64,000 nt of DNA from an uncultured bacterium (GCA_964387845.1 CAYLXA010000002.1:192001-256000); one strand, 5' to 3'. Positions 3,074 to 51,070 are shown, numbered from the stretch's first letter. Notes: generated by a model from the letters alone, not told the origin. Translations and numbers: made by a program.

Positions 3074-4699
3074 CTAAACAGCGGGCTGTGCCGCTTTCTG
3101 AGGTGCGATGACCGCTGTCGGGGTCGAACTTGTCACTGTTGTGGCTTTCATCGGCTGACCTTGCGTGTCAACGATGGTTACCGTAATAAAAAACAAAGTC
3201 TCAATTTTTGAATTTTTATCTTCTCCTTGGTCTCTAAAGTGACGTCGAAACAATCTGCCTAAAACCGGGATTTTTGATGCGCCAGGCACCGAATCTTCTT
3301 GGACTTGCTCGGCATCTCGCGCCAGGCCGCCAATTGCAATTGTTTCTCCGTTATTAATCAATACCTGAGTTTGTGCTGTTGTGGTTGTGAAAGAAGGTGC
3401 GACGAAACTTGATGAAAACGTCACGTCATCACCGCGACTGCTCACTTCCGGACTTAGGTCGACTAAAATTTCATTGGCTTGATTGATATGCGGAGTCACG
3501 TTTAAAACAACTCCGATATCACGATATGTGAAGCCGGTTACCTCAAAGCTACCGGTTGTTTCGTTGCGTTCAAACGACGGAATCGGGATCTGGCTTCCGA
3601 CCTGAACTTTTGCGGTTTGATTGTTTAACACAACAATGCGCGGATTGGAAACGATCTTTGTATTATTTTTTGATCGCAAATACTTCAGAGTTGCGTTAAA
3701 TGAACTAAAATTTAAAGTTCCAAAAGTGAACGTGGGCCTGTGTGACGCAAGCGTTAAATCTGGCGAGCCAATCGGTGCAACGCTGGGATCATTAACAGTA
3801 TCGGCTACGTTACCTCCATAAAACGCGTTAAAATGCGTTAGCGGGTTCTGGTCGCGGGTACCGCTTCCCGGAGCAGACCACGGAAACGTGACCTGGCGAG
3901 ACGCTCCCGTTAAGGATCCTTGCGGCGTCCAATTGATACCCAAATCTTCATTCTGATCAAGCTGAGTTCTCACGATTTTTGCATCGATATAGACCTGAGG
4001 CGTGCTCTTATCAAGACTGCGGATAACCTGGCCGATTTTATACAAATTAGTAGGAATATCCGTAATGATTACCGTGTTGGCGCGAGGCACCGATTTCACA
4101 CGACCTCGCTCAGAGAGTATGTCTTTGATAGCCGACTCCACTTCTGCCGCTGTTGTGTAATTTAAAACAAACGTCTCGGTTATCAATTCTTCGGTTGCAA
4201 GATTCTCTTTTGTTGTAACTCTGACTATGTTCTGCTCGCGCTCATAAACATACCCATAAGTCCGCAAAACAACCTCGAGCGCCTTTTGCCAAGGCACATC
4301 TTGAAGTCTGATCGTTACCGTCCCATGCACCTCAGGCCCGGCAACAATGTTGACGCCGCTTTTCAAACTCAATACCCGCAAAACATTTAAAATGTCAGCA
4401 TCTTTAAAGTCTAAACTAACATTTCCCGGACTGGTCGTTCCTTCACTGGCTGTTTGAACTGCTTTTGTATCGGCTGAGGGTTCAGCTGACGGAACCTCTT
4501 CAGAAGGACTGTATTCGTAATTTTCATTACCCGGTGATAACTCTGTGCTGTTTTGATCCAGGGGCGCACTCGCTTCGTTGGTGGGTTCTTCGGCCGACAC
4601 TTTGGCGGGCTCGACTCCGATCACCAAAATCATAAGTATAATGATCCAGGCAATTCGTCTAATCATGCTGAAGCCCGGAAGCTGTTGTGGTTGTATCAT
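3074..4699 (-). CDS. pilQ: Type IV pilus secretin PilQ
   Basis: Signal peptide, an N-terminal region, and a C-terminal secretin domain (NPRIVVLNNQTAKVQVGSQIPIP...). It is the last gene of a pilMNOPQ-ordered operon. Confidence 0.8.
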   Translation of the reverse strand: MIQPQQLPGFSMIRRIAWIIILMILVIGVEPAKVSAEEPTNEASAPLDQNSTELSPGNENYEYSPSEEVPSAEPSADTKAVQTASEGTTSPGNVSLDFKDADILNVLRVLSLKSGVNIVAGPEVHGTVTIRLQDVPWQKALEVVLRTYGYVYEREQNIVRVTTKENLATEELITETFVLNYTTAAEVESAIKDILSERGRVKSVPRANTVIITDIPTNLYKIGQVIRSLDKSTPQVYIDAKIVRTQLDQNEDLGINWTPQGSLTGASRQVTFPWSAPGSGTRDQNPLTHFNAFYGGNVADTVNDPSVAPIGSPDLTLASHRPTFTFGTLNFSSFNATLKYLRSKNNTKIVSNPRIVVLNNQTAKVQVGSQIPIPSFERNETTGSFEVTGFTYRDIGVVLNVTPHINQANEILVDLSPEVSSRGDDVTFSSSFVAPSFTTTTAQTQVLINNGETIAIGGLARDAEQVQEDSVPGASKIPVLGRLFRRHFRDQGEDKNSKIETLFFITVTIVDTQGQPMKATTVTSSTPTAVIAPQKAAQPAV

Positions 4700-28978: not shown

Positions 28979-29146
28979 TTAGGAAGGTCTTTCGGCCTCA
29001 TCGATCAGCATAATAGGAATTCCGTCTTTAATCGGAAATTTCAAGCCGCATTTTGCATTCTGGCAGACGATTTTTTGCCCTTCCAGTCGGATGGCCTGCT
29101 TACAGGCCGGGCAAGCTAAAATATCGAGCAATGATTGATCGATCAT
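28979..29146 (-). CDS. Trm112/YcaR-family small zinc-ribbon protein (UPF0434-like), 55 aa
   Basis: My translation of 29146..28979 is MIDQSLLDILACPACKQAIRLEGQKIVCQNAKCGLKFPIKDGIPIMLIDEAERPS*. LLxILxCPxCK...CxxC...FPIxDGIP is the Trm112/YcaR signature. The ATGA start/stop overlaps the upstream gene. It is below the size cutoff of the supplied ORF track. Confidence 0.6.
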   Translation of the reverse strand: MIDQSLLDILACPACKQAIRLEGQKIVCQNAKCGLKFPIKDGIPIMLIDEAERPS

Positions 29147-30123
29147 GATTGATGAGTTGTTGTGTGACGGATTTTACCGCCAAATACGGCATATAGAATA
29201 CCACAAAGAAGGCCCAATCCATAGAGCAAAATATCATTGGCCAGGGCGAAGGCTGCGGCATGCGCTTTGCTCGTGTATTGGCTAAGAAAATAGATAAGCG
29301 ACGCCTCGCGGACACCCAAACCGCCAAGCGAAGGTGCCATGGATGCAATTCCGCTTACGGGAATAACTAGAAATAAAACCAGAAATGATATGTCCGCCGA
29401 GAGACTCTTAAAAATCATATAGCCGATATAAATGGAAATAATCTGGACTGCGATTGAAATCAAAAAACCTGAGAAAAGTGCGGCGTGTGAATGACGGTAT
29501 CGCGCAATAGCTTGATAAAGTTCTGATATCTTCTGCTTCCCCATTTCACTGGGAATAAACCGGGTAACAAATTTGAACTTGCGCGCCAGCGGCTCATTCA
29601 ATAGAAGTGCGATCACGATCACAAACATAATCGCAATGCAAAAAACGATAATCGGAAGCTGCCAATTGTGAAACTGGACAATAAAAAACGGCAGAGAAAC
29701 AAGCGCAACGAACACGAGCGTGGTTAACCCCACCAGGCGATCGACAAAAATTGCGGAAACGGCCCGAATGGTTGACCCGGAGTCTCTTCCGAGGTAATAG
29801 GCTTTCACGAGGTCGCCTCCGAGCGAGGAAGGTAGAAATAAATTAAAGAAAAGCCCCACAAAACTCATGTAAAACACTCGTCCGGCCGGGACAACAATTT
29901 TTTCGGCACGCATAATGATGAAAAGCCTTAAAGCAATCAACGCGTTCAGGCCGACAAAAAGCAGGAAGACAAACGCAAAGAGCGCCAAATCGATTTGGCG
30001 AACGGCCGCAAGCGCGTGCATCCACCGGTCACGCAAAAAATAGATCACGCCGGCCACAAACGCCAGGCTGACCCCTACCCGGAGGAACTCTTTTAATATT
30101 TTTTGACGACTGATTCTGATCAC
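29143..30123 (-). CDS. UPF0104 / lysylphosphatidylglycerol-synthase-TM-like (flippase-like) membrane protein
   Basis: 326 aa with ~8 transmembrane helices; the N-terminal RISRQKILKEFLRVGVSLAFVAGVIYFL is typical of this family. Confidence 0.55.
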   Translation of the reverse strand: MIRISRQKILKEFLRVGVSLAFVAGVIYFLRDRWMHALAAVRQIDLALFAFVFLLFVGLNALIALRLFIIMRAEKIVVPAGRVFYMSFVGLFFNLFLPSSLGGDLVKAYYLGRDSGSTIRAVSAIFVDRLVGLTTLVFVALVSLPFFIVQFHNWQLPIIVFCIAIMFVIVIALLLNEPLARKFKFVTRFIPSEMGKQKISELYQAIARYRHSHAALFSGFLISIAVQIISIYIGYMIFKSLSADISFLVLFLVIPVSGIASMAPSLGGLGVREASLIYFLSQYTSKAHAAAFALANDILLYGLGLLCGILYAVFGGKIRHTTTHQS

Positions 30124-30141
30124 AGCCCGTTATCTTTAGTT

Positions 30142-30193
30142 AAAAAAAAGAGGTTCACGGCATCCGCGGAATCGGATATTACCGTGAACCTCT
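30142..30193 (-). terminator. Rho-independent terminator downstream of the second STAS-PilZ gene
   Basis: On the minus strand: a perfect 12-bp stem AGAGGTTCACGG ... CCGTGAACCTCT with a ~21-nt loop, followed immediately by T8. A second short hairpin AGAGACG/CGTCTCT lies just upstream, at about 30205..30222. Confidence 0.7.
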
Positions 30194-30265
30194 TACTGGG
30201 TGAGAGAGACGTCCGTCTCTTGAAACGTAAGTGAATTTATATCACAACCATATCAGACTGTCAAA

Positions 30266-31000
30266 TCAAACTTGTTTGGAATCGAGAAATTGAATACCCA
30301 GCCCCACCTGGCGCTTCGACAACTCGATTCGCTTAATACAACCTTGAATCTTGACCTCCTCCGGAAAGCTTTCATTGGCCGGAACCAAGATAGTTACCTT
30401 GTTGCTCTCCAGGTCTGACATCTGTGAAACCTGAAGCGAACTGTCCAAATCCAGATATTCAGCGAACAAGCCGCCTTGGCTGATGTTGGTCGCAATCGCT
30501 TTAGAGTGAACCTTCTTGCCATCCGCGGTTTCGAATTCGATTTCGATCGGAATCGCCACCCGAATACGTTTACTCCGCCTGCGCTCCAGGCCGTATTTGT
30601 CATGCAGCAAGCCGAGTTCCTTTGGAACACCGGTATCCTTGTCCTTTTCGAACAAGAACGAACCCACTGAATCGGCAATTTCAGCTTCCGAAATACAGAG
30701 TTTGATATTTTTCGGCAGGTAGGTCCCCTTGAAAAACTGGGTGAACCGGTCGTTGGTGCAGAACACCAAACTTTTCTGTGGCCGGATCAGGCTCGCAATA
30801 AGCCGCCTAACGATCAGCTCGTCAAGCTCCTGGACCTTCTGCAGGTTCAGGATCACCCGCTTCAGTTTCTTTTTTTGGATGACGTGATCAATTTTATCGA
30901 TCACCTCCACCGACTGCTCGCCGGTCAGAGTTCCGTACAAGTCGAAGACCTGAACTCTTCCGATCTGTCTTTGCTCAACTTTTGGCATTAATGTTTTCAT
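30266..31000 (-). CDS. STAS (anti-sigma-factor-antagonist-like) plus PilZ domain fusion protein, paralog 2; candidate cyclic-di-GMP receptor
   Basis: The N-terminal ~110 aa have a STAS-like pattern (VQVFDLYGTLTGEQSVEVIDKI...VILNLQKVQELDELIVRRL). The C-terminus carries both PilZ cyclic-di-GMP motifs: RxxxR (RRSKR) and (D/N)xSxxG (NISQGG). Confidence 0.6.
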   Translation of the reverse strand: MKTLMPKVEQRQIGRVQVFDLYGTLTGEQSVEVIDKIDHVIQKKKLKRVILNLQKVQELDELIVRRLIASLIRPQKSLVFCTNDRFTQFFKGTYLPKNIKLCISEAEIADSVGSFLFEKDKDTGVPKELGLLHDKYGLERRRSKRIRVAIPIEIEFETADGKKVHSKAIATNISQGGLFAEYLDLDSSLQVSQMSDLESNKVTILVPANESFPEEVKIQGCIKRIELSKRQVGLGIQFLDSKQV

Positions 31001-31210
31001 AACACACCTCTCTCTTTCATCTAGAATTAAAACGCTCGATGCCGCCGTATGCGTTCCAACGCTTGAAACTTGGCATGCATCTTTTCTCCAATATACCCCG
31101 TCAAAATCTCATAACCATACACATGCAGCGGAACCGCAAAGCGCCCGCTTTTCTTATGTTTCACTTTTAGCAGCTTATTAAATAACCGTTTCATTGAGAG
31201 CCCCTTTACT

Positions 31211-31942
31211 TTACTTATCCAGATCCGTCAAAAGCTGTCTGATTTTCTTTTTCGCTTCCGCCGCAATTCCGTAAAATTCGATTCCAATTCCGACTTGATC
31301 GCCGTCTGCCTTGACGTGAATTACCTTGCCCTCGGCTTCAATCGGCATGTCGTCCGGCCCCGCGATTTCCAGTTTCAACAAACTCAATTCATAAGGATTG
31401 ATAATCGCTTTTGACTTCTCCGCGTCTTCCAAGTCGATGTACTCCGCAAACAGACCGCCTTCGCTCATATTTGTCACAATCGCCCGAAACTGAATCATCT
31501 TCCCCTTTTTATCCTTGCAGTAAAAAAACATCGGTAACGCGGTTTTGATTCTGCGAAAAAGCCTTTTGTCCGTCTTGGCATCCGTTTGCGCCATTTCCCT
31601 TCCAAATAGTTTCACAAGCTCCTCTTCTCCGTTAATCACATTCATACTTCGCTTTACCGGATACGCTTTAATCATGCTCATGACCTGTTCACTGCCGCGG
31701 ATCATTCCGCTTCGTTCCCTTTTGATCAAATTCTCCACCACTGCTTTCGCGCCAAGCGAATCCATCGTTTCGAGCGGCCTTAAATTAAGAACCAGCGCGG
31801 ATGCCAGATCGTTTTCGGCCATTGAATCTATTTCTTGCTGAACGCGAACTGCCCAAGGCCCCACCAAATCACCTTTAAGGTCCACCAAGTCCAACTTGCC
31901 GATTCTCCTTTTTACCACTTGTGGAAATTTAGCTGGCTTCAT
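31211..31942 (-). CDS. STAS plus PilZ domain fusion protein, paralog 1; candidate cyclic-di-GMP receptor
   Basis: From MKPAKFPQVVKRRIGKLDLVDLKGDL... it aligns with the N-terminus of paralog 2. PilZ motifs RLFRR and NMSEGG are present. The start was placed at the internal ATG preceded by a GAGGAG Shine-Dalgarno; the track ORF begins 28 codons upstream at a TTG and would cover the sigma54 promoter. Confidence 0.6.
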   Translation of the reverse strand: MKPAKFPQVVKRRIGKLDLVDLKGDLVGPWAVRVQQEIDSMAENDLASALVLNLRPLETMDSLGAKAVVENLIKRERSGMIRGSEQVMSMIKAYPVKRSMNVINGEEELVKLFGREMAQTDAKTDKRLFRRIKTALPMFFYCKDKKGKMIQFRAIVTNMSEGGLFAEYIDLEDAEKSKAIINPYELSLLKLEIAGPDDMPIEAEGKVIHVKADGDQVGIGIEFYGIAAEAKKKIRQLLTDLDK

Positions 31943-31972
31943 GCGCTCATACTCCTCGTTGGGTGTCAATAG

Positions 31973-31988
31973 TACAACAAGCGTGCCA
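31973..31988 (-). promoter_or_regulatory. Candidate sigma54 promoter TGGCACG-CTTG-TTGT upstream of STAS-PilZ paralog 1
   Basis: On the minus strand, TTGGCACGCTTGTTGTA: the -24 element is perfect (TGGCACG) and the -12 element is TTGT rather than TTGC. It lies ~30 nt upstream of the GAGGAG Shine-Dalgarno/ATG, and a domain-less sigma54 activator is encoded directly upstream. Confidence 0.45.
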
Positions 31989-32123
31989 ACTTTATTTGAT
32001 TTCTTCAGTATCTTTAAAGGATTCAAAACAAAGGGGTTACAACTTTCTTAAAAATCGGTAGTTTGAAACTAACAATTTAAACTGTAACAACTTTTTGACA
32101 GTTGTCACAAAAAAGAGACAGGA

Positions 32124-33155
32124 TTATGCGAGGTCGATTTGATAGAGTTTCAGTTTGCGGTTTAAATCCTGGCGGGAAATACCCAGCGCTTTTGCGGCTT
32201 GTGTTTGATTGCCTTTTGTGCGAAGGAGCGCTTCTTCGATAACCGTTTTTTCAAAACTGGATACCAGATCGCTTTTCCTTTTCTTGAGAGATTGATCCTC
32301 CGAAATGGAATCGCCGCCCTTTTTCTTCATTGCGGCTTCAATCAAATGGCGCGACAAATCTTTGGCTTCGACTTTCGGCCCCGAAGCCATGATACAGGCT
32401 TTCTCAAGTTCATTCTCAAGTTCTCGGATATTCCCGGGCCAATCATAAGATTGCAAAGCCTTTAAAACTTCCGGCTCCAGCGCTTTGACGGGTTGGCTAT
32501 TTTTAGCCGATATCTTTTGGACGATGTGCGTGACCAGTTGCGGGATGTCTTCGCGGCGATCGCGCAAGGCGGGTAAATTGATATGCATAACGTTTAATCG
32601 ATAAAACAAGTCATTTCGAAATTTTCCGGAATCCACCATTTTCTGTAAATCTTGGTTGGTGGCTGCAATAATTCTGACATCCACCTGGATCGGTTTTGTG
32701 CCGCCGATTTTAAAAAAAACACCTTCCTGCAGAACCCGCAATAATTTCACCTGAAGCGCCGGGCTCATGTCACCGACTTCATCCAAGAAAAAAGTCCCCT
32801 TGTCCGCAATCTCGAAAAGTCCTTTCTTTTCGGCAAGCGCACCAGTGAATGACCCCCGCATGTGGCCAAAAAGCTCGCTTTCCAAAAGCGCATCCGAGAA
32901 TGCGGAACAATTGATGATCACAAATTCGTTGTTTTTGCGTTTACTGTGATAATGGATGGCGCGCGCCACCAATTCCTTCCCCGTTCCGCTTTCGCCCTGA
33001 ATCAAAACCGTGACGTCATAGGCCGCAATCCGCTGGAGCAAATCACGGACATACTGAATCGACGCGCTCCCGCCCACCAGCCCGAAATCAGGGCCTGCCG
33101 ACGCCGCCTTCGGGTTGATGCTACTTTTGGGATTTGTTTTTGCTTTTGAGGTCAT
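32124..33155 (-). CDS. Sigma54-dependent transcriptional activator lacking an N-terminal sensory/receiver domain (PspF/HrpS-like: AAA+ plus HTH only)
   Basis: After a ~35-aa low-complexity N-terminus comes GESGTGKELVARAIH (Walker A), then GSFTGA (a GAFTGA variant), and a C-terminal HTH AAKALGISRQDLNRKLK. There is no REC, GAF or PAS domain. Confidence 0.8.
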   Translation of the reverse strand: MTSKAKTNPKSSINPKAASAGPDFGLVGGSASIQYVRDLLQRIAAYDVTVLIQGESGTGKELVARAIHYHSKRKNNEFVIINCSAFSDALLESELFGHMRGSFTGALAEKKGLFEIADKGTFFLDEVGDMSPALQVKLLRVLQEGVFFKIGGTKPIQVDVRIIAATNQDLQKMVDSGKFRNDLFYRLNVMHINLPALRDRREDIPQLVTHIVQKISAKNSQPVKALEPEVLKALQSYDWPGNIRELENELEKACIMASGPKVEAKDLSRHLIEAAMKKKGGDSISEDQSLKKRKSDLVSSFEKTVIEEALLRTKGNQTQAAKALGISRQDLNRKLKLYQIDLA

Positions 33156-34467
33156 TAAATTCCTTCAGTCTCTTTTGAATTTCGCGCTCATAGCCTTGTT
33201 CGGTCGGATGATAGTAAGCTTTATCGCCTTTCCGGTACGCTTGGTCAACCACGTGGCCCGGAAAGTTATGAGCATACTGATAACCCTCGCCGCGGCCCAT
33301 GCGCTTGGCGCCTGAATAACTTTTGTCGCGCAAATGATTCGGAACCTCTTCGGCCGCATCTTCTTTAACATCGCTGGCCGCATTTTCAAGCGCCATGTAA
33401 GCCGCATTGCTTTTGGGTGCCGAAGCCATATAGGTCACCAGCTGCGCCAAAATGATTCTCGCTTCAGGCATCCCGACAAATTCAATGGCTTGCAAACCGG
33501 CAGAGGCCAAAATCAAGGCCTGCGGATCCGCATTTCCGATGTCTTCAGATGCCAATATGACGATGCGCCGTGCAATGAACCGCGGATCCTCGCCGGCATA
33601 AAGCATTTTCGCAAGCCAATAAACCGCCGAATCCGGGTCCGAGCCGCGCATGCTTTTAATAAAAGCACTTGCCGTATCGTAGTGATAATCTTCGTCGTGA
33701 TCATAATACACGATCCGTTTTTGGCAGGATTCCTGTGCAACCGTCCGATCAAAATGAACGGAACCGTCTTGAGCAGGTTCAGTTGTCAGCACACCGATTT
33801 CTAAAGCATTGAGTGCCCTGCGCGCATCGCCTGAAGCATATTTGGCCAGATAATTCAGCGCATCCTCCGTAATTTCAACCCGAATTTTTCCAAAACCCCG
33901 TTCCGGATCTTGAAGTGCAGATTTCATCACAGAAATCAGCTCGGCTTCAGTGAGCGGCTTGAGCTCGCAGAGAAGTGAGCGCGAAAGAAGCGGCCCATTA
34001 ATTGAAAATGAAGGGTTGTGGGTCGTTGCCCCGATCAAAATCAAGTTGCCATTTTCGACATCGGGCATCAAAACGTCCTGCTGCGCTTTGTTAAAGCGGT
34101 GAATTTCATCGACAAACAAAATAGTCCGGCGCTCTGTGTGTTCGCGGTTATATTTTGCTTCCTCAATAACTTTACGTAAATCTTGAACGGTGGCCGAGAC
34201 TGCATTCACGTTCCGGAATACGGATTTTGTAACTCTGGAAATCAGATAAGCCAGCGTGGTTTTGCCGCTTCCCGGCGGCCCGAATAAAATCAAAGAACTG
34301 AGCCGGTCAGAAAGAATGACGCGCCGTAGAAGTTTTCCGTCGCCCAACAGATGGCCTTGACCCACAAACTGTTCGAGCGTTTGAGGCCTCATACGGACCG
34401 CGAGCGGAGAGGTTGACGGTGTTTCGGTGTTGGAAGCAGGGGCAGAATCAGAGAAAAGATCAATCAT
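33121..34467 (-). CDS. rarA: Replication-associated recombination protein A (AAA+ ATPase, MgsA/WRNIP family)
   Basis: MRPQTLEQFVGQGHLLG...LFGPPGSGKTTLA plus the C-terminal MgsA helical domain. Confidence 0.85.
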   Translation of the reverse strand: MIDLFSDSAPASNTETPSTSPLAVRMRPQTLEQFVGQGHLLGDGKLLRRVILSDRLSSLILFGPPGSGKTTLAYLISRVTKSVFRNVNAVSATVQDLRKVIEEAKYNREHTERRTILFVDEIHRFNKAQQDVLMPDVENGNLILIGATTHNPSFSINGPLLSRSLLCELKPLTEAELISVMKSALQDPERGFGKIRVEITEDALNYLAKYASGDARRALNALEIGVLTTEPAQDGSVHFDRTVAQESCQKRIVYYDHDEDYHYDTASAFIKSMRGSDPDSAVYWLAKMLYAGEDPRFIARRIVILASEDIGNADPQALILASAGLQAIEFVGMPEARIILAQLVTYMASAPKSNAAYMALENAASDVKEDAAEEVPNHLRDKSYSGAKRMGRGEGYQYAHNFPGHVVDQAYRKGDKAYYHPTEQGYEREIQKRLKEFNDLKSKNKSQK

Positions 34468-34496
34468 ACCTTATTGATCTCACGCTAAAGTGAAAA

Positions 34497-35264
34497 CTAC
34501 CAGTGCAACGCATCGCGGACAGGCCGTGCGAAGCGTCTTGAAAGCGGAATCCGTGTCTGTTTTGAATCGTTCAGGTCAATCGAGAAATTGCCGCTGGATT
34601 GCGGTGAAATCCGGGCAATAAAATCAATGTTCACGACATGCGCCTTGTGAACCTGGAAAAATTTCTTGGGGTCCAATTTCGTCAGCAATTCTTTCAAGGT
34701 CGACTTCACCAAATACATTTGCTGATCCGTTTGATGCGCATAAATATCCGCCAGGTCCGCATGAAAATAAGTGACTTTGCTGACATCAAAGAAAATACGC
34801 TCTTTACTCTCCGGTTTATAACCGCAAATCCGGTCCAGATGATTGCCTTTGCTTGCGGCCCGGTTTAAAACCTGAAATTGATCCTTCAAGACTTCCGTTT
34901 GGCCCAGCAATGTTTTGGCCCGGTCCATGGCACGTAAAATCCGGTCCTTTTCGTAGGGCTTGAGCACATAATCAACTGCGCTGAGCTCAAATGCCTTGAC
35001 GGCATATTCGTCGTAGGCGGTTGCAAAAATCACGACCGGCGGCTTTTCCATTTTTCCGACTTCCGTCGCCACATCAAGCCCGGTCATCTTCGGCATCCGG
35101 ATATCCAGGAAAACAATCTGGGGGGACAACTCGCGAATCTTGTCGAGCGCTTCCTTTCCGTCTGACGCCTCACCCACAACGCGAACATCGTGGCAAGCGC
35201 CCAATAAACGCTTCAACCCTTCGCGGGCCAGCGGTTCGTCATCAACGATTAATGTGGTCGGCAT
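34497..35264 (-). CDS. LytTR-family response regulator (AlgR/LytR type)
   Basis: Receiver domain (LIVDDEPLAREGL, D..K) plus a C-terminal LytTR DNA-binding domain. Confidence 0.8.
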   Translation of the reverse strand: MPTTLIVDDEPLAREGLKRLLGACHDVRVVGEASDGKEALDKIRELSPQIVFLDIRMPKMTGLDVATEVGKMEKPPVVIFATAYDEYAVKAFELSAVDYVLKPYEKDRILRAMDRAKTLLGQTEVLKDQFQVLNRAASKGNHLDRICGYKPESKERIFFDVSKVTYFHADLADIYAHQTDQQMYLVKSTLKELLTKLDPKKFFQVHKAHVVNIDFIARISPQSSGNFSIDLNDSKQTRIPLSRRFARPVRDALHW

Positions 35265-35269
35265 AATGA

Positions 35270-36565
35270 TTACTCCTCTTCCTCTGATGTTAAAGGTATT
35301 TTGAATTGTACTGCAGTTCCCTGTCCGATTGCACTAGAAATTTTTAACTCCGAATCACGCCCAAAATGATACCGCAGCCTCTCATTAATGTTCTGAAGGC
35401 CGACTCCGGCACCTTCGCCTTCGTGGCTGACTTGCCCTTTCCGGACTTCCTCAAGCCTCTTTTCGTCCATTCCCACGCCGTGATCTTTCACTAATATTTC
35501 GACATATTTTCCGTTTTCCCAAGCGGAAATAGAAAGAAGCGCGCCCTCTGATATGGGCGCAATCCCATGCTTAATCGCATTTTCCACAATAGGCTGAATA
35601 ATCAAAACCGGCAGCTTGGCATTGGCGCCGCGCGGGCCCAGCTTGATGCTTTTCTCAATTTTCAGCCGGTTTTGATACCGGGCTTGTTCGATTGCTAAAT
35701 ACGCGTCGATATGATTAAGCTCTTCCTCAACCGATACCCAATCGCCTTCCTGTTTCACAATCCGGCGGAAAAAGTTTGAGAGTTTGATCACAAGTTCACG
35801 GGCATGCTCCGCTTTCTCGCGGCTGCAAATCGCTGCAATGGTGTTTAAAGCGTTAAACAAAAAATGCGGGTTGATTTGCGCCTGCAAAAATTTAAGCTTC
35901 ATCTGCGGAAGCAGCCGTTCCAAATTTTTCCGGCGCTCATCCTGCACTAAGCCGATGGCCACCGCCATAAAAATATACGCGCTCATGGCTTCTAATACGA
36001 CCAGTGAAAACAAAATACCGAGAAGCGCAGCCGCGTGAGTCGCTTGCCAGAGCGGCCAATATAAAATAATGCCCTGCAAAATCCCGGCAAACCCTGCAGC
36101 AAAAAGCGCGCTCCATCTTTTCGGTGTTTCGTTTCGCCGTAGATCGGACAACGCGCCCCCCAAAAGCCCTGCGCTTATTAAAATCAGAACATGATGTAAA
36201 TGAAATTCGCCGAGCATTGCTCGAAATAGAATGCCGACGGCAGCACAAATAACGCCTCCGCGAAAACCTGCTAACAAACCGCAGGCAACGGTAAACACGA
36301 GATAAAGGTCCAGAAAATACCAATCGGACTCGCCGTAGCGCAAATACCCCATTCCAGAGCCGACGATTCCCAAAATTGAAAAAGCGATGATTAGAAAATA
36401 ATTATTTCGTGCATTTTGGGATTCGGTGGAATCTGTAGAAAAAAGCGAGCGAAACCATGGAAATCGAACCAGCAAGTAAGAGGAAAGCACCACGAAAGCG
36501 AATTTCTGAAAAATATCGCCGTAAATTTCAAGCCAGGCAATCCGGATCTGTTCTGCGTAAGGCAT
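35270..36565 (-). CDS. LytS/AlgZ(FimS)-type sensor histidine kinase (5TM-Lyt plus His_kinase plus HATPase)
   Basis: Multi-transmembrane N-terminus, LNPHFLFNALNTIAAICSRE (the His_kinase PF06580 motif), and G-box GVGLQNINERL. Confidence 0.75.
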   Translation of the reverse strand: MPYAEQIRIAWLEIYGDIFQKFAFVVLSSYLLVRFPWFRSLFSTDSTESQNARNNYFLIIAFSILGIVGSGMGYLRYGESDWYFLDLYLVFTVACGLLAGFRGGVICAAVGILFRAMLGEFHLHHVLILISAGLLGGALSDLRRNETPKRWSALFAAGFAGILQGIILYWPLWQATHAAALLGILFSLVVLEAMSAYIFMAVAIGLVQDERRKNLERLLPQMKLKFLQAQINPHFLFNALNTIAAICSREKAEHARELVIKLSNFFRRIVKQEGDWVSVEEELNHIDAYLAIEQARYQNRLKIEKSIKLGPRGANAKLPVLIIQPIVENAIKHGIAPISEGALLSISAWENGKYVEILVKDHGVGMDEKRLEEVRKGQVSHEGEGAGVGLQNINERLRYHFGRDSELKISSAIGQGTAVQFKIPLTSEEEE

Positions 36566-42697: not shown

Positions 42698-45600
42698 TTA
42701 CGCCGCCTGTCGAATCGCCTGACGGCCCTGTTCTTCAATATAGAGCGCTTCGATTCTATCAAACATGATCGTAACGACACCCGTGTAATGGTCAAATTCG
42801 AACCCGAGGCTTTTTAAGGGAAAAAGAAGCCGCGCCTGCTCTTCGGGGCTCTTATTTTTAAGGATTTTCGCCAGGGTGCCCGCCGCGCGAAGAATCGGAA
42901 TGGTAAGCTCTTGAATGGCTGCTTTACTTCGAACGCTTTCCCAATTGGCAAACGCGACAAAAACATTTGTCAAAGCCGCGAGCTGACTTTCGGTTTCTGC
43001 CATCGCAGCACCATCTGTTGTTTGCGCCAAAGGAACGAACGGCATATCGGAAATCCGCAGATTGCGTGAAAGTGCACCAGCCGCCTGCGCACGCTCCACC
43101 GCATCCGTAATAGCTTTTACAAATTCATTTCGAATTTTCTGGACATGCATTCTCGCTTCTGTATCCGGAGCCGAAAATGCGATTCGCAATTCAGAGCGGG
43201 ACAATTGATCGAGACTCATTAAGAGAGCTTTAGCCAACGCGCCCTTGCCGTCAACCGTCACGGTCGGGATTCCGATTTTTACATCCGGCGTAATAAGAGC
43301 CTCGATTGCAGCTTCAATGCGGCTTGCAATGATAGCACCTGCGTCGGTCACTTGAACTGCTGCAGGAAGAATGGATGTGCTTGTGGTTAGGCTATTTAAA
43401 GTCGGTTCTACAACTAAACTGAAAAATCGAGAATTTTGTACCGCTAGAATATCAAATACATTATCAGAAACCGTTGTGGCCACTATTTTTGAAGCGGCCT
43501 CACGCAATTCTGAGCGATTCTCTTCCGCTTTTGCTGCAAGCTCCAGCGCTTCTTCGCTGAATTCCACAGTGTCTTCTTGCGGCTGTCCGTTCACTTTCAC
43601 TTGCGCCGGAGACTTTCGCGGCGCAAACTGCTGAATCGGTTTTCGATCAGGATTGATATCCACAACCGGCGGAACCGGCTGAACCGCCGCCCGAAGTTCG
43701 GATTTCTTAGTTTTTGTCGAATCTGATACGGGCGGAGCAGATTCAGCGGGCGTCGAGTCAGTTTCGCTGCTAATTCCTGCGGTTTTCTCAGCCTCTGCCC
43801 TTACCTTAGCGACCTTCACCCATTCAATGAAATCGAGCATGGGCCTTTCAGGATTTCGTATTTTAAGATCACCTTTTAGCAATCCATTAATAATTTTTAC
43901 CGCCAATCGCTTCATTTGGTCATCAAATTCAGTGCTTTTAATAATAAAGCTCTGATTGCTTTCTGTCATGTTAAGCGCCATTAGCGCAATGCCCAATAAA
44001 TCGCGCGTTGCATTCAACGGAAATTGAATGGTTTTCGATAGTTTTGGAAGGCGGTCGTTCAGTTTAACCATGACACCGCTTCTATTAAAAATGATGTCGA
44101 ATTGTCTATCAGTCAGGTTCATGTCCTTTTTCAATTGCTCCGGATTTTCTTTCGTTGAAAAAGCCAGCGCCCAATCAAGGACAACTGGTCCGTTATCCGT
44201 TTCAATGATATTAGGCAGGCCCAGATCATTGTGAACGACACCGGCCTGATGTGCATAATCGATGATTTGAGCGACTTGGAGCAATAAATCTGAAGAGCGA
44301 ATGGGTTTGGTTCCCGGTTTTTCAAACCGAAGCCAAAGCTGAGGGCGGTTATTTTCCGAGCTCCCAACCACGCCGCTGCGGGCACTAAATGGAAACCCTT
44401 CTTGCCATCCATTCGGATTAAGAAGTTTGATGAACTCATTTTCTCTGACGAGCAAGCGATGGTGAATTTTTATTTCATTTTCAAGACGCCTGTTGAAATC
44501 GTCCTTTTCATCCTCAGCCACACCATTGTTATAATCCTCCATTCCCGGCAGAACTTCCTTGACTATATTGAGCTCCCCGGTGCGCTCATTAATTACAAGG
44601 GTAATGTGAGATACCTCATGGGGACGTGGCGGACGGCTTCTTTTGATGACTTCAGCGTAATATAACTGCTTGCGAGGCTTGAAAGAAAAACTCCAGACCA
44701 TTCGGCTTCTTACCTTAATATCATTTGCATTTCTTACTTTAATAATTTTATTCTCTTCGATATACCGAAGCGGCGTATCGCCGTCATGATCTTCCCAGAT
44801 ACGTCCGCGTATTGTTTTGCGCGATAATTCAAACACGCGCGCCCGCACGCGCTCTTCAGACTCGGAAACGATAAGCACGCGCCCGCTCAAAATCAAAGCG
44901 TTCACGATGTATGGCGTATGAACCGGAGAATCAGCGTCTATAATCATTCGCTGGCGTTCGTTTCGATCTTTTATAATTTGTTTGTCGTTCAGCACAACAA
45001 TGCGATCCTTTTTTGGAATTCCTAACTTGTCGGCTAATTTTGTCATCCAGAAATGTTTCTTTAGCTGATCTTTTGTTAAACCGAGTTCATTGTCTTTATG
45101 CCGAAGCTCGGAGCGGCTGGGTTCGTCGCTATCCCTCCCTGTGCCGGACGGAAGCATATTTGGCCAGAAACGTGGCGTAATGTGCCAAGCAACCAAAAGC
45201 CCGAATCCTGCCGAAAGCGACACTGTCGCAAGAATTGAATAAACCATTTCCGGAATTTGTTGGGCAAGAAGCGGAACATTGAAGCGCAGTTCGGATTTCT
45301 GAGGCGTTAAATTACCGGAGATCACCTCAGCTTGCTTTTCCTCAATGATCGCCGTTGCTCGGCTGGAGGCTTCGATTTGCCGGTTTTGATCATCAATTAA
45401 AGCACTGGCTTCACGCGCCTTTTCCGCCAACTCGCTTGCCGAAGTGCTCTTGGGTAGAAATGATGAGATTTGTTTGAGACGGCGAAGTTCGACACGTTGA
45501 GCAGCCACCCGTTTGGGATTTTGTAGGATGTGTCTACGCTTAGAAGGATCAGAAGCAATCGGAAACTCAAACCGCGGAAGGTCATCGACATAAGCAATTA

Positions 45601-47446
45601 ACTTCTCTTTGCCATCAATTATGGCAGTGCGTATTTCTGATCGCTGTGTCAATGTAGCGACATCCGTGACTTGAGAGAAAATAGCGTCCAATTTTCTAAT
45701 TTCACTGCGTGTAAAAGCACGGTGTTGAAGCGCTAAATTATTGGGGTAAAGTGCCTGTGCGACTTTTAATCTCTCGTCCTTCGATACCAAGCTTAGAAGC
45801 TCCCGGATTTGAGATTGGTCAAACATGGTTTTGCGCGTTCCGAGCATGGATTCTAGATAGATTTTCTCAACACCTTCGACGGACGAAAGCCGCGGGCTGA
45901 TTTCGATATACGAAAAGTTTTCCTTTGCGAAACGTTCCTCCAGGCCCTCCGAGTGAAATCCGCCGCTCACCAGAATCGCAGACTGACGGCCGAGTTTTTT
46001 TAAAACTGACTTTGCATTTTCAACAAAATGTCTCTCGCGCGAAACCGCGCCTTGATAAAAATCAATTGCGGATTCGAAAATATCATCAAGTTCGGCGGAA
46101 ACTTTTATCGAATCAGGACTCACATCCCGTCTCTCGGCCAGTGTTTTTATTAAAAAACTGGGGCTGAGCGAATCTTTTTGGTACATCGCCACCGCCACTT
46201 CATTGCGGACGAGCTCGAGCTTGAGCAGCTTTTCGAGCAGGATTGATTTCTGAATCAAATCCACCAGCGATTTTTCCTGATCCGATTCGATCAGCACTTT
46301 AAAAACAGCGGCAACGGCCTTTTCAATTTCATCAAAAAACTGAATGCCGTCAATTTCGCTTTGGAATATCAAGGTCGCCAAAACTTTCGACAGTTCGGGA
46401 AAATATTCAAACTCAAAACCGTGCGGCGATAATGCTTGATACAAATCCTCCAGAAAAACTCTCGGCAATCTTGCGCCAAGCCCCTTCACGCCGCTTTCTA
46501 ACTTCCAATCGTCAAGGCCTGCTTTTAACTCCGCCGGCACATCCAGCGCGTGGACGAGTGATCGCAAGCTGTCCAACTCGCCTTGCGCTTCGTCTAACTT
46601 AATTTTAGACTCCAAATTTTGCGCTTTGAAAAATCGGACCAGCATCGGGTATTCAATTTGAGATTTTGCGTGTGCTATATCCATCTCGAGCCTGCTCAAT
46701 GCAAACCGCTTAATGACGTTCAAAAAGCCGATCAAATCCAGCCGTTCATCGCGCCAGGCCAGCCATGAGCGTAAAAAATCTTTTAAATCTTTATTGAAAT
46801 AACGCGATCCTAGGACTTCAATCTGTCCGTGGAGATTTTTTAAATAACGATCAACATTGGTGCGATGCGACGCGACTTTTTGGAAAGTTTTGAGGTTTTT
46901 CGCAAACGCTTCTAAGTTTTCAACGCCTTCCGCATGAATGCTCGGATCGTCCAAATGATCCAGCAAAAATAATTCGGCGCCCGAAAGGTCCCCGTTCTGC
47001 GCCATGTAATCGGCGATTTTTTTGTTGAGATCTTCATCATCGAAGAAACGGAATTGCTCCGGGTCAAGCTCGGATGAAGCTGCTTCTAAAAGAATTGTTT
47101 TGATTCCGTAGGCTCCGGAAATGTGCTCGATAATTTCCTTGGTATGCCGCTGCGCTTCATAGCTTCCGTGCGCATCGCGGATATGAATGATCGCGGGCGC
47201 TTCGTTACCTGCAGCTATTACCGGCCGGACCGACTCAACGCGGCCGAGCGATTCCGGGATACTGAGATCTAAAATTCTAAAATACGAGGTTTGTGCAGGT
47301 TCTGCAAAGTTGGCGATTTGAATGGTGGCCGGTGTTGCAAGCGCGGGGTCAATTGAAGAAGTGGCAAGAACCGTCAGAATAAGAAAACTTGAAAGCAATC
47401 TTACTGTAAACTTATATCTATTATTTCTCAATATTTTATCTGACAT
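42698..47446 (-). CDS. Giant (1582-aa) signal-peptide protein with one internal transmembrane helix and a protein-kinase-like catalytic motif set; function unknown
   Basis: Signal-peptide-like N-terminus (FTVRLLSSFLILTVLATSSIDPALA), a ~780-aa N-terminal region, and a hydrophobic helix (VYSILATVSLSAGFGLLVAWHI). The C-terminal region contains AEVIK (VAIK-like Lys), HNDLGLPNII (HxDxxxxN catalytic loop) and DWALAF (DFG-like), consistent with a protein-kinase-like fold. I recognise no other family. Confidence 0.6.
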   Translation of the reverse strand: MSDKILRNNRYKFTVRLLSSFLILTVLATSSIDPALATPATIQIANFAEPAQTSYFRILDLSIPESLGRVESVRPVIAAGNEAPAIIHIRDAHGSYEAQRHTKEIIEHISGAYGIKTILLEAASSELDPEQFRFFDDEDLNKKIADYMAQNGDLSGAELFLLDHLDDPSIHAEGVENLEAFAKNLKTFQKVASHRTNVDRYLKNLHGQIEVLGSRYFNKDLKDFLRSWLAWRDERLDLIGFLNVIKRFALSRLEMDIAHAKSQIEYPMLVRFFKAQNLESKIKLDEAQGELDSLRSLVHALDVPAELKAGLDDWKLESGVKGLGARLPRVFLEDLYQALSPHGFEFEYFPELSKVLATLIFQSEIDGIQFFDEIEKAVAAVFKVLIESDQEKSLVDLIQKSILLEKLLKLELVRNEVAVAMYQKDSLSPSFLIKTLAERRDVSPDSIKVSAELDDIFESAIDFYQGAVSRERHFVENAKSVLKKLGRQSAILVSGGFHSEGLEERFAKENFSYIEISPRLSSVEGVEKIYLESMLGTRKTMFDQSQIRELLSLVSKDERLKVAQALYPNNLALQHRAFTRSEIRKLDAIFSQVTDVATLTQRSEIRTAIIDGKEKLIAYVDDLPRFEFPIASDPSKRRHILQNPKRVAAQRVELRRLKQISSFLPKSTSASELAEKAREASALIDDQNRQIEASSRATAIIEEKQAEVISGNLTPQKSELRFNVPLLAQQIPEMVYSILATVSLSAGFGLLVAWHITPRFWPNMLPSGTGRDSDEPSRSELRHKDNELGLTKDQLKKHFWMTKLADKLGIPKKDRIVVLNDKQIIKDRNERQRMIIDADSPVHTPYIVNALILSGRVLIVSESEERVRARVFELSRKTIRGRIWEDHDGDTPLRYIEENKIIKVRNANDIKVRSRMVWSFSFKPRKQLYYAEVIKRSRPPRPHEVSHITLVINERTGELNIVKEVLPGMEDYNNGVAEDEKDDFNRRLENEIKIHHRLLVRENEFIKLLNPNGWQEGFPFSARSGVVGSSENNRPQLWLRFEKPGTKPIRSSDLLLQVAQIIDYAHQAGVVHNDLGLPNIIETDNGPVVLDWALAFSTKENPEQLKKDMNLTDRQFDIIFNRSGVMVKLNDRLPKLSKTIQFPLNATRDLLGIALMALNMTESNQSFIIKSTEFDDQMKRLAVKIINGLLKGDLKIRNPERPMLDFIEWVKVAKVRAEAEKTAGISSETDSTPAESAPPVSDSTKTKKSELRAAVQPVPPVVDINPDRKPIQQFAPRKSPAQVKVNGQPQEDTVEFSEEALELAAKAEENRSELREAASKIVATTVSDNVFDILAVQNSRFFSLVVEPTLNSLTTSTSILPAAVQVTDAGAIIASRIEAAIEALITPDVKIGIPTVTVDGKGALAKALLMSLDQLSRSELRIAFSAPDTEARMHVQKIRNEFVKAITDAVERAQAAGALSRNLRISDMPFVPLAQTTDGAAMAETESQLAALTNVFVAFANWESVRSKAAIQELTIPILRAAGTLAKILKNKSPEEQARLLFPLKSLGFEFDHYTGVVTIMFDRIEALYIEEQGRQAIRQAA

Positions 47447-50305: not shown

Positions 50306-50524
50306 TTGCTTAAACTGTGCGAATCTTGATCAGTTTGACAAATCATGTTTTAGAATTCCGGGGTTGTTCGATCCGTCTTCCCTACAAAATTGTAAAGAAA
50401 GTGGCCATTTTTGTATTGTCCTTCACTGTTAACTTTCAAAATTTAAATGTTTCCTCCTTATTTTTTAGTTATGATGCCTTTGGCATGATTCCTGCAGTTA
50501 AACCTGCCTGAGAGGTTAAAAAAG

Positions 50525-51070
50525 ATGAAACTATCATTTAAAATTGCAGCTGCCTTGGGGTTGTTGCTTGGATTAATCAGCACTTTCTATGTGCAAAATG
50601 GATTTTGCAATGATTCAGTCATCCCAGGCAAATATTTTGGGCACAAGTTGGCAGGAGATCAATATCTTCAATCCGAGAAATTTAATTCTGCAGTTTCAGA
50701 ATATGAAAACGCTCTCCGAGTCAATCCAAAATCGACGGCAACTTACTTTAATCTTGCAATCGCCAGCTATTTAAACGGAGATTTAAGAGGAGCTGTTTCA
50801 GCGCTTGAAAAACTGCTTAAACTTGATCCCGCTGATGTTGAAGCTCATTACAACTTGGGATGTCTGAAGTTAATTTTGCAAGATTTGAATGGCTCTAAGG
50901 CTTCGTTTGAAAAAGCAAAACTGTGTCGCGGCCAAAACCCCGCATTTTCTCCACTCGTGAGCCAAGGCCTTGAGTTTCTGGATGAGTTTACGAAACTCGA
51001 TCCAGCCACCCAAGACCTTAACCTATTTTTCCTTCAAGCATCACTTCCCGCACAAACCCTTGTTTCGTAA
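50525..51070 (+). CDS. Secreted TPR-repeat protein
   Basis: Signal peptide MKLSFKIAAALGLLLGLIS plus three or four TPR-like repeats (AVSEYENALRVNPKSTATYFNLAIASY...). It is the only convincing plus-strand gene in the window. Confidence 0.6.
   Translation: MKLSFKIAAALGLLLGLISTFYVQNGFCNDSVIPGKYFGHKLAGDQYLQSEKFNSAVSEYENALRVNPKSTATYFNLAIASYLNGDLRGAVSALEKLLKLDPADVEAHYNLGCLKLILQDLNGSKASFEKAKLCRGQNPAFSPLVSQGLEFLDEFTKLDPATQDLNLFFLQASLPAQTLVS

Follow-up and report, generated by a model that had tools for sequence, protein, structure and literature searches.

A sensor-less sigma54 enhancer-binding protein gene next to tandem genes for STAS-PilZ proteins, predicted c-di-GMP receptors, in Omnitrophota

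The 64-kb window analysed here (the whole stretch CAYLXA010000002.1:192001-256000, from an uncultured Omnitrophota bacterium) carries on its minus strand a gene for a sigma54 enhancer-binding protein (EBP) that has no sensory domain, followed by two tandem genes, called paralog A and paralog B below, which each encode an N-terminal STAS domain fused to a C-terminal PilZ domain, i.e. a predicted receptor for cyclic di-GMP (c-di-GMP), a second messenger. The original prediction for this DNA treated these three genes as a self-contained unit in which the STAS-PilZ proteins, as part of a partner-switching module, could tie the activity of the EBP to c-di-GMP. We compared the locus with 76 related Omnitrophota locus records (designated by L numbers below), which were annotated by BLAST against the window proteins; genes were called with Pfam in L001-L007, and loci beyond these were compared with 12 reference proteins only. 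The exact paralog A protein was not in the contig index, and its genomic context was drawn from homologues.

The features of the locus are listed in Table 1. Paralog A is separated from a conserved 55-aa open reading frame (ORF) by 16 nt, and this ORF from paralog B by 26 nt, with one terminator after B. This terminator has 19 predicted pairs (a 14-bp outer and a 5-bp inner stem) and a run of eight U, the first two of which close the stem; its stability (-29.7 kcal/mol, z = -4.8 against shuffles) indicates that the terminator originally noted at this position is real. An Rfam scan of 29900..34600 found no riboswitch and no other RNA family, and the idea of a c-di-GMP riboswitch in the leader was dropped for this reason. 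At the other end of the locus, the start of the EBP ORF and the 3' end of rarA share 35 nt, and the two genes abut or overlap in this order in every related EBP locus that shows both. Because of this overlap, rarA and the EBP gene are probably co-transcribed. The EBP and the two paralogs are therefore not a self-contained three-gene unit, as the EBP gene is tied to rarA, the 55-aa ORF is a fourth conserved gene, and the whole block is syntenic across the phylum (see below). The rarA overlap, the 55-aa ORF and two dyads at 32083..32120 had been missed in the original prediction.

Table 1. Minus-strand features of the EBP/STAS-PilZ locus, in order of transcription (nucleotide positions counted from the first letter of the window).
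Feature	Position	Strand	Remarks
LytS-like kinase	35270..36565	-	first in transcription order of the region
LytTR response regulator	34497..35264	-	second in order
rarA/mgsA	33121..34467	-	Pfam; 3' end overlaps EBP start
EBP, sensor-less sigma54 enhancer-binding protein, 343 aa	32124..33155	-	Pfam, NCBIfam, motif alignment, PDB relatives
Spacer between EBP and paralog A, 181 nt	31943..32123		
Distal dyad TGT-N12-ACA, TGTCTCTTTTTTGTGACA on minus strand	32103..32120		candidate upstream activator sequence
Proximal dyad, TGTCAAAAAGTTGTTACA on minus strand	32083..32100		
Sigma54-type -24/-12 promoter (predicted), TGGCACGCTTGTTGTA	31973..31988	-	31 nt 5' of paralog A start codon
STAS-PilZ paralog A, 243 aa	31211..31942	-	predicted residues: STAS ~8-118 with D61-S62-L-G; linker; PilZ ~127-225; C-terminal helix
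Conserved basic ORF, 55 aa	31027..31194	-	between paralogs
STAS-PilZ paralog B, 244 aa	30266..31000	-	predicted residues: STAS 1-112 (D-E at SpoIIAA Ser58 position); disordered linker 116-142; PilZ 146-238
Intrinsic terminator (hairpin + U-run)	30142..30194	-	closes operon
LPG_synthase_TM gene	29143..30123	-	after terminator

The Pfam scores of the STAS and PilZ domains are marginal. In paralog A the PilZ domain scores 35.8 bits (cut-off 22.5), whereas the STAS domain reaches 18.1 bits, under its cut-off of 22.6; in paralog B both domains lie barely above the cut-offs (STAS 23.6 bits, PilZ 23.9 bits), and TIGR00377 scores well under cut-off for both proteins. Profile scores alone thus bear out the PilZ domains of both proteins and the STAS domain of B, and leave the STAS domain of A below the threshold. 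The domain assignments therefore rest on the predicted folds. AlphaFold models of paralog A (pLDDT 88.4, pTM 0.83) and paralog B (pLDDT 82.6, pTM 0.79) were compared with solved structures using Foldseek, and the N-terminal ~115 residues of both matched the STAS alpha/beta fold of SpoIIAA (1TIL, 1THN) and RsbV (6M36), with target-normalised TM values of 0.77-0.80 and a root-mean-square deviation of 2.1-2.5 A over ~100-115 aligned columns. The C-terminal ~100 residues matched the six-stranded beta-barrels of PilZ domains solved with bound c-di-GMP, i.e. YcgR, MotI, MrkH and Alg44 for paralog A (E 6e-7 to 1e-4) and Alg44, BcsA and VCA0042 for paralog B (E 2e-5 to 2e-3). No solved chain found by Foldseek spans both halves. 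At the sequence level the profile of the A family matches SpoIIAA in the PDB (E = 2.6e-4), with the family motif l-D-S-l-G aligned on the SpoIIAA phosphorylation site M-D-S58-S-G; paralog A has S62 in M-D-S-L-G at this position. Since the predicted structures match both folds, we take A and B to be STAS-PilZ proteins despite the weak profile scores.

Both proteins also carry the two sequence motifs with which PilZ domains bind c-di-GMP, RxxxR (R127-L-F-R-R131 in paralog A and R141-R-S-K-R145 in paralog B) and [D/N]xSxxG (N158-M-S-E-G-G163 and N172-I-S-Q-G-G177, respectively). The two arginines do not vary in either of two alignments (27 and 48 sequences) or among ~65 locus-derived sequences; in the second motif the Gly is invariant across homologues, and the Asn/Asp and Ser are nearly so. 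The RxxxR motif of paralog B sits in a linker of low confidence in the model, as expected of a loop that becomes ordered upon ligand binding. The proposal of two tandem STAS-PilZ fusions with intact c-di-GMP motifs is thus borne out by Pfam, by AlphaFold and Foldseek and by motif conservation, and both proteins are predicted, from these motifs, to be c-di-GMP receptors.

The EBP consists of a Sigma54_activat domain (PF00158; 237 bits, residues 27-192) followed by AAA_lid_14 and HTH_8, and its Walker A (GESGTGKE), Walker B (FFLDE) and GSFTGA motifs are intact. Neither Pfam nor NCBIfam recognised anything in the first ~25 residues, which are of low complexity and are not kept in the orthologues (323-343 aa), confirming the earlier description of an activator with AAA+ (GSFTGA) and helix-turn-helix (HTH) regions and no sensory domain. 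Its relatives in the PDB are ZraR, FlrA, NifA, FleQ and PspF. This list includes activators that bind c-di-GMP themselves, and an alternative to any role of the STAS-PilZ proteins in signalling to the EBP is that c-di-GMP is sensed by the EBP itself via the AAA+ domain, in the manner of FleQ, FlrA and VpsR, the STAS-PilZ genes merely being part of a c-di-GMP-responsive regulon. The AAA+ domains of FlrA and FleQ do rank among its nearest relatives of known structure (E 8e-79 and 2e-73), and the Arg that follows Walker A is present (GKELVARAIH). However, ZraR, NifA and NtrC score equally well, and the similarity to FlrA and FleQ is therefore generic to the family. The Asn after this Arg is replaced by Ala, and the LFRS motif, whose arginine serves direct c-di-GMP binding in FleQ, reads PDFG in the EBP. 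Direct sensing thus appears highly unlikely.

The two paralogs differ greatly in their distribution. In a set of 5.8 billion proteins we found 28 relatives of paralog A and 170 of paralog B, and every source name given for them was Candidatus Omnitrophica or Omnitrophota; an exhaustive profile search returned 134 clusters (50% identity) at E <= 1e-10, most of which are full-length at ~240 aa. The gene block PheT-RarA-[EBP]-[A]-B-DUF1844-LPG_synthase_TM-AccB-AccC is syntenic phylum-wide. Paralog B is present in every locus long enough to show it, including ~45 non-redundant loci that have B without an EBP, and is therefore a phylum-wide core gene of Omnitrophota. The EBP is present in only 16 non-redundant loci, all of one lineage, and each of these has an A-type paralog (35-100% identity). 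Among the EBP-less loci, some have an A-like paralog that is divergent (22-32% identity), and ~30 have B alone. The EBP-associated A proteins group together in a neighbour-joining tree and all of them have D-[S/T]-[L/V]-G at the position of SpoIIAA Ser58, compared with only one of the ten tabulated A-like proteins from EBP-less genomes. In B homologues this position is Glu, Ala, Pro, Gln or His, and because of this variability we dropped the idea that the Glu of paralog B is phosphomimetic. As B occurs in ~45 loci without an EBP, its function cannot depend on this activator, and the target of paralog B is almost certainly not this EBP. The two paralogs, which had been given equal status in the original prediction, should therefore be considered separately.

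The 55-aa ORF was called at the same place in L001 and L002 (L001 6757-6924), and a local hidden Markov model detected it in 16 locus records (15 non-redundant, mostly EBP-less). It also lies upstream of paralog B in L023, L024, L026, L033, L034, L039, L040, L042, L043, L015, L044 and L041, and where present it is always directly 5' of B. The family shows the pattern [ST]GY[ILM]xPx[LM]H..L followed by a K/R-rich tail, and had zero matches in Pfam or NCBIfam. The 55-aa protein may be a partner of paralog B.

Outside the phylum, distant full-length STAS-PilZ relatives (E ~1e-9 to 1e-12 against the profile) were found in the anammox Planctomycetota Candidatus Scalindua (L077 5001-5744) and Candidatus Anammoxibacter (L078 5001-5777). 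One lies in a polysaccharide-type neighbourhood (Wzz, DegT) and the other ~2 kb from a REC-type EBP; none of these anammox relatives adjoins a sensor-less EBP, and they therefore provide no independent support for the association. Database names for the family are 'PilZ domain-containing protein', 'STAS domain-containing protein' and 'anti-anti-sigma regulatory factor'. We found no description of a STAS-PilZ fusion protein in the searchable literature, in agreement with the earlier statement that no characterised STAS-PilZ/sigma54 system was known; for Omnitrophota, one preprint reports small pilZ genes along with GGDEF domains and does not mention this family.

To look for regulatory sites, the spacer 5' of the first STAS-PilZ gene was aligned across all loci. 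Right after the EBP stop codon, one or two dyads with the consensus TGTAAC-N6-GTTACA (i.e. TGT-N12-ACA) are present in all 16 non-redundant EBP loci. Allowing up to two mismatches, dyads were found in 11/11 EBP loci of the first set compared with 1/31 EBP-less spacers; the five additional EBP loci also have dyads, two of them with perfect copies. At the same threshold, 15 of the 18 matches in 416 kb of related-locus DNA fall in spacers between an EBP and A. The window contains two dyads against 0.68 expected window-wide, a count that none of 100 shuffles reached. The dyads lie ~95-130 bp 5' of the -24 element described below (~95-110 bp for the proximal dyad), a distance that is usual for an upstream activator sequence. 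We also considered whether the dyads could be a rho-independent terminator of the EBP gene, and rejected this owing to the variable spacer, the short stems and the mostly missing T-run. With conserved half-sites around a variable 6-nt spacer, and without a T-run in most loci, the dyads are better read as a protein-binding site, for which the EBP is the candidate. The recognition helix of its HTH region (SRQ[D/E]L.RK in the motif alignment) is kept in both of the EBP clades described below, consistent with one shared dyad.

Between the dyads and paralog A, the sequence TGGCACGCTTGTTGTA matches the sigma54 -24/-12 consensus at 11/12 positions. Its significance derives from its position, its conservation in orthologous loci and its co-variation with the EBP. 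The pattern TGGCAY-N5-TTGN scores 9-11/12 in all 11 loci of the clade to which the window belongs (the window itself, L001, L003, L018, L050, L056, L009, L052, L057, L049 and L008), with 27-160 nt between it and the start codon. The element is kept at the orthologous position in these 11 loci although the flanking A paralogs are only 40-65% identical. A score of 9 is reached in only one true EBP-less spacer, at a site 383 nt away from the start codon. In two of the clade loci the element is 130-160 nt from the A start codon, i.e. L009 (spacer ~285-445) and L056 (spacer ~250-405); their leaders show, by eye, inverted repeats that are potential hairpins and that are not in this window, and these long leaders might be regulatory.

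Sigma54-type promoters are likely to be used elsewhere in the genome. A second EBP, of the REC type and with an intact GAFTGA motif, is encoded at 10077..11447 and forms a PilS/PilR-type pair with 11444..12685. The sequence TGGCATGGAAGTTGAC at 9927..9942 (-) lies 57 nt before the ATG of a type IV pilin gene (9418..9885, -, with an N_methyl motif) that is located 3' of this pair. It scores 9/12, like TGGCACGCTTGTTGTA it is without the C at -12, and it is likely a second sigma54 promoter in the window. The likely use of sigma54 at this second site provides independent support for TGGCACGCTTGTTGTA. As a separate observation, TGGCATGATTCCTGCA at 50481..50496 (+) scores 10/12 with the correct GG-N10-GC spacing and lies 29 nt 5' of a gene for a TPR protein (50525..51070, +, 181 aa); it is a possible third sigma54 promoter.

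The type of promoter co-varies with the motifs of the EBP. The six complete EBPs encoded beside a -24/-12 promoter all have GSFTGA and the Walker B sequence FLDE. All seven EBPs of the other clade have GSFAGA, GSFVGA or GSFVGS, with the D-E of Walker B replaced by D-H, K-D or N-H, and the -24/-12 score is 8 or less in all seven of their loci (L004, L006, L010-L013 and L058). For sigma70-like promoters we scanned with the block TT[GA][GA]A[CAT]-N16-20-GTAT[CG][CT]T; a generic sigma70 hexamer score was tried and rejected because it did not separate the groups of loci in this AT-rich DNA, and we therefore relied on the conserved block. Several of the seven loci carry a sigma70-like block TTGAAw-N17-TATGCT, which is similar to the conserved block TTGGAC-N17/18-(G)TATCTT of the EBP-less loci. 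Neither this window nor any other locus of its clade has the latter. The clade with degenerate EBPs still keeps the dyads and the A paralog. Lost GAFTGA Thr and Walker B Glu residues are what define the characterised atypical EBPs that use sigma70, i.e. VpsR, TyrR, HupR, PhhR, HsfA and NtrX (PMC6158489), and the degenerate-EBP clade looks, from these motifs, like a natural case of sigma54/sigma70 rewiring at one locus. The predicted sigma54 promoter before the first paralog is thus strengthened by its conservation in 11 orthologous loci and by its co-variation with the GAFTGA and Walker B motifs.

These observations suggest the following sequence of events. The EBP would be made together with RarA, bind the two TGT-N12-ACA dyads and activate the sigma54 promoter, giving a single transcript of paralog A, the 55-aa ORF and paralog B that would end at the terminator after B. 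The PilZ halves of A and B would bind c-di-GMP through RxxxR and [D/N]xSxxG, and this would most likely alter what the SpoIIAA-like STAS half can bind. Control of the A-B operon by the EBP, dependent on sigma54 in this genome, appears well supported by the comparative sequence evidence. The reading as a whole, i.e. a lineage-specific EBP added on to a phylum-wide c-di-GMP receptor gene and driving A, the ORF and B via sigma54, is in our judgement probable, with some reservation.

Several points weigh against it. The dyads adjoin the EBP stop codon, and the copies in the window can form a weak AT-rich hairpin that was flagged by a terminator scan. Matches to the -24/-12 consensus with up to two mismatches number 8 in the window against 11 expected, so that a single match is not above chance, and the -12 element of TGGCACGCTTGTTGTA is TTGT, not TTGC. 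No rpoN gene was seen in the 64-kb window. STAS and PilZ score marginally in Pfam, the organism is uncultured, and the co-variation, which spans essentially two clades, may go back to one or two evolutionary events. The points concerning the promoter would fit with the explanation that the -24/-12 match is fortuitous, that the housekeeping sigma factor transcribes the operon and that the EBP regulates something else, or nothing here; in favour of this is also that most Omnitrophota read paralog B from the sigma70-like block. However, that block is missing in the whole clade of the window, precisely where the -24/-12 element is conserved and co-varies with the EBP motifs, and the dyads track the EBP. 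A fortuitous promoter match is consequently very unlikely.

Whether the STAS-PilZ proteins in turn control the EBP is a separate matter from EBP control of the operon. In the original model, c-di-GMP on the PilZ domain would toggle binding of the STAS domain to the EBP or an intermediary, which would create a feedback loop on the operon that encodes them, as in PspF/PspA or HrpS/HrpV/HrpG. The EBP has no sensory domain and is seemingly co-transcribed with a housekeeping gene and constitutively expressed, and control at the post-translational level would therefore be expected. PspA and HrpV, which are known to regulate sensor-less EBPs, have their genes in the operon that the respective EBP activates. 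The EBP and the A-type paralog occur together without exception in the 16 non-redundant loci, the Ser/Thr-containing face of the STAS domain is kept by the EBP-associated A proteins and by one of ten A-like proteins from EBP-less genomes, and the EBP has PDFG in place of the LFRS motif, whose arginine binds c-di-GMP in FleQ. However, the co-occurrence of a local activator and its target gene would be expected without any feedback, e.g. if A is merely a target of the EBP. The wide occurrence of paralog B without any EBP means that at most paralog A can be EBP-specific. The pairing of A and EBP also persists where the EBP has lost the Walker B Glu and the GAFTGA Thr, and PspA-like inhibition of the ATPase or of the sigma54 contact therefore cannot be the conserved function. 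We know of no interaction between a STAS domain and an AAA+ domain.

The partner-switching part of the original model gained no support: no RsbW/SpoIIAB-type kinase and no PP2C phosphatase were found among the 42 Pfam-scanned ORFs of the window or the called genes of the seven related loci L001-L007, and the gene order of the remaining loci leaves little room for such genes. Taken together, the original model seems doubtful. That paralog A acts back on the EBP, in the way of PspA or HrpV, is possible and should not be the default assumption; less likely still is a classical partner switch based on phosphorylation, and regulation of the EBP by paralog B is implausible. In a specific form of the feedback, paralog A would serve as a STAS switch that is gated by c-di-GMP, binds the EBP directly and sets its oligomerisation or its DNA-bound activity, the pair having been carried, in a sister lineage, through the conversion of the activator from sigma54 to sigma70. 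We consider this rather unlikely; if true, it would be a second-messenger-controlled feedback loop on a sigma54 promoter, and for PilZ proteins as well as for STAS domains it would be the first instance of control in trans over an NtrC-family activator.

The individual parts of this locus, i.e. the PilZ receptor, the STAS fold and the sensor-less bacterial EBP, each belong to a known family. What is new is the predicted c-di-GMP receptor architecture, which is core to a phylum and over which one lineage puts a dedicated sensor-less EBP. Omnitrophota form a large phylum that is uncultured; these bacteria are very small, may depend on hosts and seem heavily reliant on c-di-GMP and type IV pili. 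If the PilZ domain gates the STAS domain, the proteins would represent a new c-di-GMP output module that is read out via an anti-sigma-antagonist fold. The locus is also a natural experiment, as the same activator, site and target exist in a sigma54 version (GSFTGA, DE) and in a sigma70-like version (degenerate), and it thereby bears on the question of how atypical EBPs shift between sigma classes, which was raised in PMC6158489.

Some neighbouring genes deserve mention. The LytS-like kinase and the LytTR regulator (34497..36565, -) sit between pheT and rarA and, among the related loci, are found only in genomes of the sigma54-promoter clade (the window, L001, L003, L018 and L050). They could control expression of rarA and the EBP, or merely reflect shared clade ancestry. 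Elsewhere in the window, two tandem PilB/GspE-type ATPases (13950..15659 and 15656..17404, -), each with a c-di-GMP-binding MshEN N-terminal domain, lie inside a full type IV pilus cluster with PilC, PilM, PilO and the secretin PilQ (3074..4699). An ORF of 1582 aa at 42698..47446 (-) has zero Pfam matches at E <= 1e-5.

Among known systems, the arrangement recalls PspF-PspA and HrpR/S-HrpV-HrpG, in which sensor-less sigma54 activators are under control in trans. As there, the EBP is made up of AAA+ and HTH regions only, and the operon that it would activate starts with the gene for a candidate regulator. Here, however, this candidate is of the STAS-PilZ type and has no relation to PspA or HrpV, and in relatives the pairing outlives the loss of the ATPase and sigma54-contact motifs of the EBP. 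An EBP-activated locus that starts with a STAS gene is also known from Vibrio fischeri, where the sigma54 EBP SypG activates a locus whose first gene encodes the STAS protein SypA. Unlike the present case, SypG has a receiver domain, and SypA has no PilZ domain, is controlled by the kinase/phosphatase SypE and acts downstream, not on SypG. The candidate binding site resembles the NifA upstream activator sequence TGT-N10-ACA, a TGT/ACA dyad ~100 bp upstream of a -24/-12 promoter, but has N12 spacing and extended half-sites (TGTAAC/GTTACA) that are specific to this Omnitrophota EBP family.

The STAS halves share the fold of SpoIIAA and RsbV (TM 0.77-0.80), and D-S-L-G of paralog A falls on M-D-S58-S-G. 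They differ in being fused to PilZ, in having no SpoIIAB/RsbW kinase or PP2C phosphatase seen nearby, and in that the phosphorylation site is Glu in paralog B and Ala, Pro or Gln in other lineages. The PilZ halves resemble those of YcgR, MotI/DgrA, MapZ, MrkH, Alg44 and PlzA, with RxxxR and [D/N]xSxxG ~27 residues apart and a flexible linker before the beta-barrel. The receptors just named act through protein-protein or protein-DNA contacts. In those receptors the N-terminal partner is YcgR-N/PilZN, a second PilZ domain or a transmembrane region, whereas here it is a STAS domain. As in FleQ, FlrA and VpsR, c-di-GMP signalling would be tied to an NtrC-family activator, but in those proteins the EBP itself binds c-di-GMP, whereas here the predicted c-di-GMP domain is on separate proteins encoded downstream. 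The sister clade (GSFAGA, Walker B D-H, sigma70-like promoter) resembles VpsR in the kinds of motif loss that it shows (PMC6158489). Unlike the other atypical EBPs (TyrR, HupR, PhhR, HsfA and NtrX), this EBP family appears to have its sigma54 and sigma70 versions at one orthologous locus within one phylum.

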